A stretch of 64,000 nucleotides of DNA from assembly GCF_051903065.1 (NCBI RefSeq), contig NZ_CP178438.1, one strand, 5' to 3'. This document shows, in pieces, positions 29,788 through 32,452 of this stretch. The position numbers and the translations under genes were made by a program. The notes under the pieces were generated by a model. It was given only the letters and a program-made list of their open reading frames with translations. It was not told the origin of the DNA and did no database searches. Position 1 is the stretch's first letter; each line of letters opens with the position of its first letter. The stretch comes from Escherichia coli. Lineage in GTDB: Bacteria; Pseudomonadota; Gammaproteobacteria; Enterobacterales; Enterobacteriaceae.

Positions 29788-31770
29788 TTACCATTGATAA
29801 CTCACGAAAATTTTTCCGTTACGACCATCCTGTGGGATGCCTTGCGGCGACCAGTACTCTTTGTCGAAAGCGTTACCCAACACCAAAGTAGTGGTCATAC
29901 CTTTGAGCGCCTGTTGTCCTTGATAACTGACGTAGAAATCATTCACGCCATAGCCTGGTTGTTTGCTGTAACTGCTGCTGATATGTGTTGAGCGATCGGC
30001 AAACGTACCAACCCACCCAACAGAGAAGCCACTGTGAGCGATCGGAATATTCAGAGTGCTGGTAACGGTATCCGGGTTAATGCTGGAGATGTATTCGCCG
30101 GTATCGGTGTCTTTGCCGCGGGTACGGTTATAGGCCACATCAAGGCTAAACAGATCAGAGGTATATTTCGTCATCACATCCCAGCCCCAGATTTTGGCGT
30201 TCGGGACGTTATACGACATAGTCGTCGCCGCCGCGAAATCGACGGTCGTGGAGATGTAATCCTTCGCTTTGGTATCAAAGTAGCTGGCTTTAAATTCCAG
30301 AGCATCATTGGACAACATCAGGTCATCAAAACGCAGCCCAAAACCGTACTCCTGAGTTTCGTTAGTTTCCGGACGTAAGTTCGGGTTTGGCACCCAATAG
30401 TTGGTATAGAAGCGACCAATCGAGAAGTGCTTAGAATCGTTATACATTTCGCCCATCGTCGGGGCGCGGAATGCCTGGGCATATGAGCCAAATAACATCA
30501 GCCAGTTAGTCGGATTGATAGTCATCCCCGCACGAGATGACCATTTGTCGGCATCAACATCTTTGTAACCGTCACTGCTACCGCGATAACTGTCATAGCG
30601 GGTTCCGCCAAGCAGGGTAATCGGCAGATCGCGTAAGGTGATCTCATCCTGTAGCCAGCCGGAGCTAAAATCGATTTTTGCTTGCGGGAAGCCCGTCGTC
30701 GCGCCGCCCGGATGTTGTTCCTGACGATAATACTCACCGCCATATGTCAGTAAGTGAGAAGCGAAACTGTCGGCAAAGAGAGTGGAACGGTTCTCCAGCC
30801 TGGCTCCTTTTGTTATCTGTTCACGATACTCGCCGGAACTCCCCGTGTTTTGCGCATTAATACGGACTTCCGACCAATAAATTTTTGCATCTGCATTTAA
30901 CCAGTCGTTGCCCTGCGGGGCGAGTTTATAAGAAAGCTGCGCATCGCGTTGAATTGTTGAACGATCAACCATCGGGTTGCTGCTTTCAGAAGCCTCAACG
31001 GTCTGCGGATTTTTTGGTTCACGCGCGTCGTTGTTGTAGTAACGCACTAAACCGCTCAGAGACTGGGCTGAATCAATTTGCCAGGTCCCTTTCGCCAGCA
31101 TGTTATTAATGGACTCGTCATTCGGCGCGGTTTCACCATTGCTCTGGCGTAAATCACCCCGATCGCGACTGGACCAGGCCACAATACCATCCAGATTTTC
31201 AGTTCGCCCAAACGCGCTCGCGCCTAATCCCAGGCTATGGTCCCCCGTGCCGCCAGTACCAAAGACACGAAAACCACTGCTTTGTCCTTCCTGCAATAAA
31301 TCTTTTGCATCGACCGTATCGTAGGAGATCACTCCACCCAGCGCGCCACTGCCATACAGTAATGCTGAAGGTCCGCGAACAATCTCAACACGCTTGATCA
31401 GCGCCGGATCGAGAAAAGTGCCATTCAGGTGTCCGGTATCCGTTCCCTGGCGAACACCATCGATAAGAACCAGCACGCCGCGATGATCATAGCCACGCAT
31501 ATTTACATCCTGACCGTTGGTTCGTCCGGTACCATCCAGAGTCATTCCAGGAACATGACGCAGCAGATCGGTGGCTGAAGTAGCCGTTTGATTTTCAGGA
31601 GCGGAAGTGTCGATGACGCTGACCATCATAGGCGCTTCGAAGGAACTACGGGCATTCCCCGTTGCCGTAACGGTCATGGTTTCAGTAGCAAAAGCAAACG
31701 TTGGCAAGGTGGCAGAAACAGCCAAGGCCAATAAACTCAAACGCAACGAGGTAAATTGCGGACGTGACAT
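29788..31770 (-). CDS. chuA: TonB-dependent outer membrane haem/haemoglobin receptor ChuA
   Basis: 660-aa ORF with signal peptide, TonB-box-like ETMTVTA, and terminal aromatic residue of a beta-barrel. Confidence 0.9.
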   Translation of the reverse strand: MSRPQFTSLRLSLLALAVSATLPTFAFATETMTVTATGNARSSFEAPMMVSVIDTSAPENQTATSATDLLRHVPGMTLDGTGRTNGQDVNMRGYDHRGVLVLIDGVRQGTDTGHLNGTFLDPALIKRVEIVRGPSALLYGSGALGGVISYDTVDAKDLLQEGQSSGFRVFGTGGTGDHSLGLGASAFGRTENLDGIVAWSSRDRGDLRQSNGETAPNDESINNMLAKGTWQIDSAQSLSGLVRYYNNDAREPKNPQTVEASESSNPMVDRSTIQRDAQLSYKLAPQGNDWLNADAKIYWSEVRINAQNTGSSGEYREQITKGARLENRSTLFADSFASHLLTYGGEYYRQEQHPGGATTGFPQAKIDFSSGWLQDEITLRDLPITLLGGTRYDSYRGSSDGYKDVDADKWSSRAGMTINPTNWLMLFGSYAQAFRAPTMGEMYNDSKHFSIGRFYTNYWVPNPNLRPETNETQEYGFGLRFDDLMLSNDALEFKASYFDTKAKDYISTTVDFAAATTMSYNVPNAKIWGWDVMTKYTSDLFSLDVAYNRTRGKDTDTGEYISSINPDTVTSTLNIPIAHSGFSVGWVGTFADRSTHISSSYSKQPGYGVNDFYVSYQGQQALKGMTTTLVLGNAFDKEYWSPQGIPQDGRNGKIFVSYQW

Positions 31771-31775
31771 AGCGA

Positions 31776-31791
31776 TTCTCCATGAGGAAAA
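31776..31791 (-). promoter_or_regulatory. FourU-type RNA thermometer hairpin occluding the chuA Shine-Dalgarno
   Basis: mRNA sense UUUUCC-UCAU-GGAGAA immediately before the AUG; six pairs including one G-U. Confidence 0.55.
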
Positions 31792-32059
31792 TAAAAAATG
31801 CTGGCTGCCTGGGTTAATACCGGGGTGGCTGGCGAAAAATAAATTTATTTAAAATTCAGAGCGATAATATTCGCCGGGTGAGTTTACAGGCGTTTATATC
31901 CCATGAAATTGCCTGATAACTCGGCAATTACGCAAAAGCACGCCCTCTTTGTCAGGCAAAACGATATGCCCCATCAGGAGTGAAGAGAGCTGTGCGTTAT
32001 CCCTTGCAAATGCTATGGTTTTGTTATCCATATGGTCGTGTTTTGTTAAATGCAAACGT

Positions 32060-32078
32060 GATAATGAGAATTATTATC
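32060..32078. promoter_or_regulatory. Fur box, likely the chuA promoter operator
   Basis: gataatgagaattattatc, about 16 of 19 matches to GATAATGATAATCATTATC. Confidence 0.6.
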
Positions 32079-32410
32079 GATCAATTTTTTATGATCAAGT
32101 TTTTTTTTAACCACCATTAACACAATAAACAGGGGGTTATGAAACCTATCCTGCGCCCTGTAAACCACCTTGTTTTTATGGTTATCCCCCCATGCCTCAT
32201 CACTAAATTTTGTCGTTAACAGTGATAATTTTTTCTTCTCTTTGCTCTGCAAGCCTCGATATCTCTGGGTTCTCAGCTTTTTCCCGCGATGAAATTTAGT
32301 CGGTAACAAGAACGTTAGCTGACGAAGCATCTTGATAAAAATCAAAAATAAATACGCTTGTAACGCCTTGCGTATTGAATCGACGGTTGTATTTCATATA
32401 TAACTCAAAT

Positions 32411-32429
32411 GATAATCATGATCATTCTC
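32411..32429. promoter_or_regulatory. Fur box upstream of chuT
   Basis: gataatcatgatcattctc, strong match to the Fur consensus, about 25 bp upstream of ATG 32453. Confidence 0.6.
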
Positions 32430-32452
32430 AATTTGATAAGAGTTCTCATATT

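Follow-up and report, generated by a model that had tools for sequence, protein, structure and literature searches.

The chuA-chuT spacer of Escherichia coli as a very probable divergent control region for iron- and temperature-dependent haem uptake

What is encoded in the 682 bp (31771-32452) that separate the divergent genes chuA and chuT/shuT in the chu locus of E. coli, a spacer in which RefSeq annotates no feature in identical or near-identical E. coli records, chuA and shuT/chuT simply flanking it? All positions refer to the window, the whole 64-kb stretch of E. coli DNA analysed, which is 99.7% identical, without length difference, to the genomes in the identity class of the H2/H3 hits. 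The two flanking genes are:

29788-31770, minus strand: chuA coding sequence, TonB-dependent haem/haemoglobin receptor, 660 aa (ORF list; RefSeq annotation of a 100% identical record)
32453-33367, plus strand: chuT/shuT coding sequence, periplasmic haem-binding protein, 304 aa (RefSeq annotation)

We regard the interval as very probably the control region of the divergently transcribed E. coli chu haem-uptake genes, under Fur and RNA-thermometer control. The divergent chuA-chuT arrangement proposed in the initial annotation is confirmed by the RefSeq chuA and shuT/chuT genes on either side. The iron/temperature switch itself has already been published and catalogued, and we report no new biology: the sequence identity and position of each element were obtained here, while Fur binding, transcription starts and temperature response are taken from papers. 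The region is a textbook switch with two inputs, low iron and body temperature, confining haem uptake to the host, and the modest value added is comparative, namely that the thermometer forms part of a stretch of leader that many enterobacterial genera conserve, at the usual position of hemP.

Transcriptional control was approached through the following sites:

32060-32078, no strand assigned: Fur box of chuA, GATAATGAGAATTATTATC, 2 mismatches (consensus search), covering the -10 hexamer and +1
32411-32429, no strand assigned: Fur box of chuT, GATAATCATGATCATTCTC, 3 mismatches (consensus search), equal to +1 to +19 of the chuT/shuT transcript
32070-32098, minus strand: chuA promoter-like site, -35 TTGATC (32093-32098), 17-nt spacer, -10 AATAAT (32070-32075) (consensus scan, 9 of 12 matches)
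32375-32404, plus strand: candidate chuT promoter, TTGAAT (32375-32380), 18-nt spacer, TATAAC (32399-32404) (inferred; read from the sequence)
31771-32061, minus strand: chuA 5' untranslated leader, 291 nt, start about 32061-32063 (dRNA-seq in EHEC Sakai; fits the promoter-like site)

Searching the whole 64 kb with the 19-bp consensus GATAATGATAATCATTATC at no more than 3 mismatches returned the two Fur boxes as the sole matches, against a chance expectation of 0.02, and four strand-matches to the consensus were reached in none of 100 shuffles. The chuA promoter-like site predicts a start about 293 nt before the ATG, in agreement with the 291-nt 5'UTR determined by dRNA-seq (Sy & Tree 2022, PMC9002310) and with the 293-nt segment that Kouse et al. 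2013 (PMC3660397) took as the UTR of chuA for cloning. With the published leader starting at about 32061, the distal Fur box therefore covers the -10 hexamer and +1 of chuA, the overlap expected of a Fur-repressed promoter, and both this box and the promoter-like site are invariant in three E. coli allele classes. Both boxes thus lie exactly where the initial annotation had placed them, and its claim of a long chuA leader, with a Fur box about 290 bp from the ATG, is borne out by the published leader lengths.

On the chuT side, the shuT transcript starts 42 nt before the ATG and its Fur site, supported by EMSA and reporters, occupies +1 to +19 with three differences from consensus (Wei et al. 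2017, PMC5458455); this site maps exactly onto 32411-32429, and among the E. coli alleles the box carries a single G to T substitution in one class. The candidate chuT promoter sits at the correct distance from the published shuT start; it went unreported by our promoter scan because the scan demands T at -10 position 6. Fur control of shuA/chuA transcription is likewise cited in Kouse et al. 2013 (PMC3660397) and Sy & Tree 2022 (PMC9002310). Fe-Fur bound at 32060-32078 (chuA -10/+1) and 32411-32429 (chuT +1 to +19) would provide the transcriptional iron control, with both operons repressed when iron is plentiful.

The second signal would be read in the RNA, and the elements concerned at the chuA start are:

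31768-31799, minus strand: shuA/chuA FourU RNA thermometer, Rfam RF02597, -29 to +3 relative to the ATG (cmscan; span as in Kouse 2013 Fig. 5)
31775-31792, minus strand: chuA FourU hairpin, 7 pairs (MFE structure at 15-45 C)
31786-31792, minus strand: 5' arm of the hairpin, AUUUUCC, four U at 31788-31791 (MFE structure)
31782-31785, minus strand: hairpin loop UCAU (MFE structure)
31775-31781, minus strand: 3' arm of the hairpin, GGAGAAU, including the Shine-Dalgarno sequence (SD) GGAGAA at 31776-31781 (MFE structure)
31789, minus strand: U at -19 (U273), the residue mutated in published work (coordinate mapping)

With 60.1 bits, above the gathering score of 58 (E 1.1e-8), cmscan matched RF02597 over model positions 1-32 with 32/32 identical residues, the match terminating on the ATG of a gene that is ChuA/ShuA in identical RefSeq records. 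In the chuA sense the leader ends ...AUUUUCC-UCAU-GGAGAAU-CGCU-AUG, and within its last 30 nt the SD GGAGAA would be held in a 7-bp hairpin, opposite four uridines and two cytidines. Whether 32 nt, 75 nt, 130 nt or the full leader was folded, this hairpin came out as the MFE structure, and in every context tried both the MFE and the centroid structure pair UUUU (31788-31791) with AGAA/GGAG of the SD, the pairing by which a FourU element is recognized. It folds with -6.1 kcal/mol at 37 C (z = -2.83), a value equalled by 5 of 200 dinucleotide shuffles. When the upstream 18 U-rich nt were shuffled, at least three of the four bases of GGAG were still paired in 93% of the shuffles, so that a paired SD is by itself weak evidence and only the stability of the real hairpin, in the top 5%, is unusual. 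Other Rfam matches in 31600-32600 (Hammerhead_HH9, with 20.8 bits where the gathering score is 52, snoR25, mir-743 and RUF1) fell far below threshold and were set aside as chance.

That the UUUUCC-UCAU-GGAGAA hairpin sequesters the SD and is the known shuA/chuA element had been proposed in the initial annotation; the 32/32 identity to RF02597 and the published mutants support it. The accompanying suggestion, to compare folding at 25 and 37 C, fared less well: the SD is indeed paired from 15 to 45 C in ViennaRNA, but with the hairpin remaining the MFE structure over that whole range the comparison is not discriminating and cannot decide thermosensing. Melting was not seen in silico, the computed dG of the hairpin staying below zero until near 70 C and P(SD unpaired) going up only from 0.004 at 25 C to 0.016 at 37 C; an equilibrium model closed up to 45 C would neither prove nor disprove thermometer function. 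Function is documented by published experiments on the identical sequence, which makes translation of shuA and of UPEC chuA respond to temperature (25 versus 37 C), as supported by stabilising and destabilising point mutations, and the 32-nt segment by itself thermoregulates behind a heterologous promoter (Kouse et al. 2013, PMC3660397). U-19C stabilises the hairpin and C-17A or U-19A destabilise it, with expression shifting as predicted (PMC3660397, PMC9002310). At about 25 C the chuA hairpin would accordingly be expected to block ribosome binding, and at 37 C to open often enough for translation.

The divergent transcript carries an element of its own:

32411-32452, plus strand: chuT/shuT 5'UTR, 42 nt, hsp17-like RNA thermometer (fold reproduces the architecture described by Wei 2017)

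The shuT 5'UTR has been described as an hsp17-like RNA thermometer overlapping the Fur box (Wei, Kouse & Murphy 2017, MicrobiologyOpen 6:e00442, PMC5458455). In our fold the chuT SD AAGAG (32438-32442) pairs with the U-rich 32424-32428, the published U15/U16 included, and the MFE structure,.(((((.((((..(((((..........)))))..)))))))))., contains U15-G32 and U16-A31 as in the hsp17-like type. This hairpin is not more stable than its shuffles (z = +0.14), and its identification as a thermometer therefore rests on Wei 2017. The 42-nt chuT leader would do the same temperature job through a different, weakly paired single hairpin, whose anti-SD would be encoded by the same DNA as the Fur box.

The long chuA leader holds further elements upstream of the FourU hairpin:

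31931-31958, minus strand: terminator-like hairpin, UGCCUGACAAAGAGGGCG + UGCUUUUGCG, the hairpin proper at 31941-31958 (scan; the Term-seq +129 end, 31933, lies in its U-tract)
31793-31799, minus strand: distal U-tract AUUUUUU, possible second anti-SD (in silico only)
31800-31833, minus strand: conserved leader element GCCAGCCACCCCGG-UAUUAA-CCCAGGCAGCCAGC, HPRE-like (near-invariance across genera; nhmmer E 5.7e-16)

Sy & Tree 2022 (PMC9002310) found by Term-seq that transcripts of the chuA leader end at +129, +271 and +297, with Rho-dependent premature termination at about +271, and that activation of chuA by the sRNA CyaR, whose pairing site is about 15 nt upstream of the SD, is independent of the FourU; they left open the cause of an 'additional repressive element' that CyaR relieves. 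Placed on the window, +129 is 31933, +177 to +217 is 31885 to 31845, +271 is 31791 and U273 is 31789. CyaR pairing just upstream of the hairpin and Rho acting at about +271 would add further layers of control to this leader. With U273A introduced in silico, AGCAUUUUUUAU takes over as partner of the SD, and it then takes a block of the CyaR site to free the SD. The terminator-like block 31931-31958 is invariant among the E. coli alleles and its flanks vary. Three E. coli allele classes, up to 11% apart elsewhere, agree in every base of the final 110 nt of the leader, and of 2235 complete genomes positive for chu, 2189 keep the last 83 nt at 99% identity or more. An RfaH ops element in the chuA leader, reportedly treated by Nagy and colleagues in 2001, was considered, and an ops-type GGCGGTAG was not seen in the leader when it was read by eye. 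The initial annotation had been silent on the chuT-leader thermometer and on the control of the chuA leader by CyaR and Rho.

Across 76 sequences, drawn from more than 15 genera, the element at 31800-31833 hardly varies, and the CyaR pairing site of the literature falls roughly on its 3' half plus the U-tract after it. Its GCCAGCC and CAGCCAGC recur in the C. violaceum chuR HPRE, as quoted in de Lima et al. 2022, and HPRE sequences with the same core have been proposed as targets of HmuP/ChuP on mRNA (Amarelle et al. 2019, as quoted there). Judged from these quotations and the sequence, the leader element resembles an HmuP-responsive element, and responsiveness to HmuP is putative. Seven of the eight Watson-Crick pairs of its helix never vary and one shows a compensatory change, G-C to A-U, in 4 sequences of one clade; this covariation is too little to prove the helix. 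Pairing of the SD in all 54 distinct orthologous leaders was dropped as evidence, composition-preserving shuffles pairing it 93% of the time.

The same comparison places the chuA leader where other genera carry a gene. In 69 of 78 orthologous loci of other genera hemP lies directly upstream of the chuA orthologue, and the chuA leader holds that position, with collinear nhmmer matches on both flanks of it. A HemP profile built from 69 neighbour proteins found no HemP-like ORF in six frames of the 64-kb window, and a Citrobacter hemP query in blastn found no hemP-like DNA in 5426 E. coli genomes, so that a HemP partner is absent here. A Fur-like box lies 291-328 nt (median 309) upstream of the chuA orthologue in 68 other, hemP-bearing loci, and the corresponding distance to the ATG is 308 nt here. 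Tentatively, and with more doubt than confidence, we suggest that the long chuA/shuA leader is a relic of hemP whose last ~90 nt are the ancestral hemP-hemR module. The module, shared across Enterobacterales, would place an HPRE-like GCCAGCC...CAGCCAGC element ahead of two U-rich tracts serving as alternative anti-SDs; Escherichia and Shigella would have lost HemP, the orphaned element persisting as the CyaR pairing site, and the distal tract AGCAUUUUUU (31793-31802) would be the 'additional repressive element' whose relief by CyaR does not depend on the FourU hairpin. The Fur box-to-ATG distance, the flanking collinear matches, the near-invariant element and the U273A refolding onto the distal tract in silico are all consistent with this history. 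If true, it could explain the length of the chuA leader and the CyaR-relieved repressive element, and would tie E. coli haem uptake to the HemP/HmuP post-transcriptional system of other proteobacteria.

A rival reading would see in the SD hairpin and the conserved element upstream of it primarily a post-transcriptional switch of ancestral origin in the hemP-hemR module, operated by a trans factor of HemP/HmuP type or an sRNA such as CyaR, with the temperature sensitivity of Escherichia and Shigella a secondary property of a weak U-rich helix. The layout GCCAGCC..CAGCCAGC, U/C-rich tract, GGAGAG, AUG indeed precedes chuA orthologues in more than 15 genera, among them the environmental genera Buttiauxella, Lelliottia and Limnobaculum. 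Such a switch would also fit the frequency of hemP directly upstream, the proposed HmuP/ChuP targeting of same-core HPREs (as quoted above) and the FourU-independent action of CyaR. In addition, Yersinia enterocolitica hemR1 has a FourU-like hairpin reported to lack thermoregulation (PMC6158557), which means that the sequence pattern alone is no guarantee of function. Against it, the published mutants and reporters show the 32-nt segment thermoregulating by itself under a heterologous promoter, and the E. coli genomes contain no hemP-like DNA on which a HemP-type factor would depend. We consider this reading rather improbable, although an ancestral switch and a thermometer are not mutually exclusive, and we retain the Fur-plus-thermometer reading of the region.

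Two open reading frames raise the alternative that the spacer contains a real small gene:

32046-32345, minus strand: 99-aa ORF, TTG start, not a gene (no Pfam, no RefSeq annotation, split in other alleles)
31894-32055, minus strand: 53-aa ORF of the chuA leader (45 aa when begun at the ATG, 32031), at the hemP position of other genera (ORF list)

Both are open in this window, and the leader ORF, for example as a divergent HemP, begins ATGGATAAC, aligning to the hemP start of other genera, and stays open in the B2-type allele with a different C-terminus. By nhmmer, only its start region TATGGATAACA aligns to hemP starts. A degenerate HemP, suggested by likeness to the eye (MDN..., SSLLMG, LLR), was rejected, the HemP profile giving it 0.6 bits, within the range of shuffles. 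The leader ORF is not conserved as a protein, since its allele differences are mostly non-synonymous and an indel shifts the frame in the B2-type allele. The 99-aa ORF lies between the two promoters, upstream of the mapped chuA start with only its last 16 nt downstream of it, and its C-terminus is the translated chuA promoter and Fur box; a 1-nt indel breaks it into pieces of 59 aa and 44/56 aa in the other two E. coli allele classes. The six spacer ORFs gave nothing relevant in Pfam at E <= 10, and neither of these two is annotated in RefSeq, which together make a small gene here very unlikely. The initial annotation had called the 99-aa ORF probably not a gene, a judgement that holds given the absence of Pfam and RefSeq support and the frameshifted alleles, but had placed it in the chuA leader, where it does not belong. 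Finally, that the hairpin is incidental, a U-rich leader beside a purine-rich SD without regulatory role in this strain, is scarcely credible: the 93% of upstream-18-nt shuffles that pair at least three of four bases of GGAG and the lack of in silico melting between 25 and 37 C would allow it, but the sequence is identical to an experimentally validated element, its stability is in the top 2.5-5% of shuffles, the 83 nt around it are conserved as given above when the rest of the spacer falls to 88.8%, and the published stabilising and destabilising mutants refute it.

Among known systems, the shuA/chuA thermometer (RF02597; Kouse et al. 2013, PLoS One 8:e63781) shares the identical 32 nt, position and hairpin, with no detectable difference, and the chuA leader of EHEC/UPEC (Sy & Tree 2022, Front Microbiol 13:821196), with its CyaR site, Rho termination at +271 and repressive +177 to +217, is the same 291-nt leader found here. 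The shuT leader of S. dysenteriae (Wei 2017), compared by description, likewise has its Fur box exactly 42 nt before the ATG with 3 mismatches; as single substitutions, one class of E. coli alleles has T for G in the box and another has C in place of U39. With the Salmonella agsA FourU (RF01795) and the Yersinia lcrF FourU the chuA element has in common four U pairing the SD in a short hairpin and a proposed zipper mechanism. It differs from both in showing no sequence or model likeness, a covariance-model search with RF01795 giving no match at E <= 10 in 31600-32600, and in being a single hairpin that ends a 291-nt leader; judged by its sequence, the chuA element would be FourU-like in mechanism and is outside the RF01795 sequence family. 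Compared with operons of the hemPRSTUV/hmuP'RSTUV type, Escherichia is without hemP and its chuT is divergent and only 35-44% identical to their downstream hemT, whereas the distance from Fur box to receptor gene is the same. In these operons and, going by the quoted sequences, in HPRE systems, GCCAGCC...CAGCCAGC(G) stands 25-35 nt before the start codon of the receptor gene, as it does at chuA.

The window carries the E. coli chu haem-uptake locus. RefSeq records 100%, 96.9% and 88.8% identical over the 682-bp spacer (31771-32452) annotate chuA and chuT/shuT on its two sides and nothing between, and the spacer is found as a single copy per genome, always chromosomal, in 2236 of 5426 complete E. 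coli genomes. In one genome, NZ_AP022044.1, the match is limited to query positions 271-682 of the spacer and lies in two places, a pattern that points to inserted or rearranged DNA within the leader or promoter region of chuA. The initial annotation had described the spacer as a control region with two Fur boxes, a long chuA leader and a FourU-type thermometer. Analysis confirmed this observation and supported its interpretation, apart from one error of position and several points left out. It is a known feature, described by a curated Rfam family and in three experimental papers.

Features of the chuA-chuT spacer and its flanks
29788-31770, minus strand: chuA ORF, 660 aa
31775-31792, minus strand: chuA hairpin, 7 bp, UUUUCC paired with the SD GGAGAA
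31793-31802, minus strand: distal U-tract (AGCAUUUUUU), substitute anti-SD for the FourU arm when U273 is mutated in silico
31800-31833, minus strand: conserved element, GCCAGCCACCCAGG, loop of 3-13 nt, CCCAGGCAGCCAGC, between hemP stop and SD hairpin in all genera
31931-31958, minus strand: terminator-like hairpin plus UGCUUUUGCG, invariant among E. coli alleles
32046-32345, minus strand: 99-aa ORF, upstream of the chuA start
32098..32070, minus strand: chuA promoter-like site TTGATC-N17-AATAAT, from a sequence scan
32411-32452, plus strand: chuT/shuT 5'UTR, 42 nt, second published RNA thermometer, hsp17-like
32453-33367, plus strand: chuT/shuT

As claimed, the chuA-sense RNA ends in AUUUUCC-UCAU-GGAGAAU-CGCU-AUG, and the predicted fold pairs UUUUCC with GGAGAA to sequester the SD. 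At 37 °C the energy of this hairpin is -6.1 kcal/mol (z = -2.83, equalled by 5 of 200 shuffles), and it remains the MFE structure when the context is widened to 75 nt, 130 nt or the full leader. SD pairing as such is tempered by a shuffle control, in which 93% of shuffles of the 18 U-rich upstream bases still paired at least three of the four GGAG bases; just the stability of the hairpin is unusual (top 5%). The supposed likeness to the shuA/chuA temperature-responsive element was borne out by cmscan, which matched Rfam RF02597 ('shuA/chuA 5' UTR thermoregulator') over its full length with 32/32 identities (60.1 bits, gathering score 58). This thermometer was defined in S. dysenteriae shuA (-29..+3) and in UPEC chuA; the -29..+3 element suffices for post-transcriptional 25/37 °C control, and expression moves as predicted with the stabilising U-19C and the destabilising C-17A and U-19A mutations (Kouse et al. 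2013, PMC3660397). The 25 versus 37 °C folding check that had been proposed, run with ViennaRNA, found the SD paired at 25 °C, but the hairpin did not open at any temperature up to 45 °C and the probability of an unpaired SD rose only from 0.004 to 0.016 between 25 and 37 °C, so that the check was not discriminating. A Hammerhead_HH9 match inside the chuT CDS (32506-32581, plus strand; 20.8 bits, gathering score 52, E 0.026) is almost certainly due to chance.

A search of the whole 64 kb with the 19-bp Fur consensus, allowing up to three mismatches (0.02 matches expected), returned only 32060-32078 (two mismatches) and 32411-32429 (three mismatches), in agreement with direct reading of the sequence and with the two boxes first proposed. 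The long chuA leader is matched by published lengths: the shuA UTR was bracketed at 278-342 nt by RT-PCR and the chuA UTR taken as 293 nt (Kouse et al. 2013, PMC3660397), and dRNA-seq in EHEC Sakai gave 291 nt (Sy & Tree 2022, PMC9002310). These lengths put the chuA +1 close to 32061-32063; the promoter-like site ends 7-9 nt before it, so that the distal Fur box spans the -10 hexamer and +1. The 99-aa ORF had been placed in the leader, but 284 of its 300 nt precede the chuA start, and what it encodes at the C-terminus is simply promoter and Fur-box sequence. Its dismissal as a gene stands, since it has no Pfam match and a 1-nt indel breaks it into pieces of 59 aa and 44/56 aa in both remaining E. 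coli allele classes.

On the chuT side, the Fur box had been recognised but the overlapping thermometer missed. The shuT start maps 42 nt before the ATG, its Fur site at +1..+19 carries three consensus differences and was tested with reporters and EMSA, and its leader is an hsp17-like RNA thermometer whose anti-SD is encoded by Fur-box DNA (Wei et al. 2017, PMC5458455). That Fur site coincides exactly with 32411-32429, and the chuT leader of the window folds as the single hairpin described, with U15/U16 facing the SD. Since shuffled sequences fold just as stably (z = +0.14), the thermometer identification rests on Wei et al. 2017.

Leader control had also been described incompletely, the layers exerted by CyaR (an sRNA activating chuA), ChiX, RyhB/Esr41 and Rho being omitted; the study reporting them gives leader 3' ends at +129, +271 and +297 and a repressive segment at +177..+217 (Sy & Tree 2022, PMC9002310). 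The published Term-seq end +129 corresponds to 31933, in the U-tract of the hairpin at 31931-31958; the ARNold scan in that study found no intrinsic terminator. The same authors reported CyaR pairing 'about 15 nt upstream of the SD' and left open an 'additional repressive element'. In silico, the SD of the FourU mutant U273A (-19 residue, 31789) re-pairs with AGCAUUUUUUAU (P(unpaired) 0.05-0.13), and with the CyaR site blocked in this mutant P(unpaired) goes up to 0.32-0.38. Judged from folding only, the distal U-tract may be this repressive element, and it could possibly explain FourU-independent CyaR activation.

Within E. coli the spacer alleles form three sharply separated classes of identity: ≥99% in 400 genomes, 95-99% in 606, and 80-90% (about 88.8%) in 1229. 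Alignment of one sequence per class revealed that both Fur boxes with the promoters, the 31931-31958 hairpin block and the leader's final ~110 nt are invariant across the three alleles, and that the leader middle and part of the inter-promoter spacer vary. Such divergence is unusually deep for an E. coli intergenic region; the last 83 nt (ATG included) are nevertheless nearly invariant, being at least 99% identical in 2189 of 2235 genomes.

A ChuA scan of species-representative genomes yielded 80 loci (78 usable) from Kluyvera, Citrobacter, Enterobacter, Lelliottia, Leclercia, Buttiauxella, Cedecea, Pluralibacter, Limnobaculum, Pragia, Leminorella and others. In 69 of the 78 a hemP/hmuP gene, whose product ends in ...GQHYLLRQTxAGKLILTK, is located 66-127 nt before the receptor gene; the loci without it there are four of Escherichia and five of Buttiauxella. 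A Fur-like box precedes the receptor ATG by 291-328 nt (median 309) in hemP-bearing loci, by 308 nt in the window and by 307-309 nt in all but one of the four Escherichia loci. In that one, L004 (Escherichia sp. MOD1-EC7003), the distance is 438 nt owing to a ~125-nt insertion with GAGCTTACATAAGTAAGTGATTCGGGTGA... in the chuA leader (L004:1195-1320), presumably resembling an ERIC/IRU repeat; the same kind of GAGCTTACATAAGTAAGTGATTCGGGTGA insertion is listed for L039, L043 and L070 (Buttiauxella).

When a DNA profile built from the hemP-bearing upstream regions was searched against the window, it matched in two collinear pieces, 32084-31979 (E 2.8e-5; Fur box and hemP start region) and 31850-31769 (E 5.7e-16; hemP stop, conserved intergenic element and SD hairpin), with no match to the profile between 31979 and 31850. 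The leader ORF was not recognisable as HemP by a protein profile (0.6 bits, inside the shuffle range), and hemP-like DNA was not found in the 5426 E. coli genomes. The chuA leader thus holds the place and length of hemP with its flanks, with sequence likeness to the hemP-bearing regions at its two ends. Neither Kouse et al. 2013 (PMC3660397) nor Sy & Tree 2022 (PMC9002310) mentions hemP, and the sole remark on the point, in a Yersinia paper (PMC6158557), is that S. dysenteriae lacks a hemP homologue. Among the loci compared, divergent chuT is limited to Escherichia, whereas other genera carry hemT downstream on the same strand (hemPRST order; about positions 4500-5000 of loci L005-L083), 35-44% identical to chuT. 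This makes the E. coli locus look mosaic, its putative junction being the ~270-bp AT-rich stretch between the promoters (32100-32375).

The conserved element, written as GCCAGCCACCC(A/C)GG - loop - CCCAGGCAGCCAGC, is near-invariant in more than 15 enterobacterial genera and lies ~30-75 nt before the ATG of the chuA orthologue (loci L004-L083). Its RNA could fold into four helices of 2 bp each, with C·A/A·C 2x2 loops between them. All 8 Watson-Crick pairs are paired in all 76 sequences; seven never vary, and at one A-U replaces G-C in four sequences from a single clade. The 'mismatch' positions are more variable than the paired ones. By this comparison sequence conservation is strong and proof of structure weak. 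The CyaR site approximately coincides with the 3' half of the element and the following U-tract. What may be new is confined to two comparative observations, a leader standing where hemP would be and an orphaned element that resembles an HmuP-responsive element (HPRE) and overlaps the site of CyaR pairing; both are leads rather than findings. The resemblance lies in a GCCAGCC plus CAGCCAGC(G) core, common to the element and to the HPRE of Chromobacterium (C. violaceum) chuR in the form quoted in de Lima et al. 2022, CCCGCAAGCCAGCCGACAGCCAGCCAGCG.
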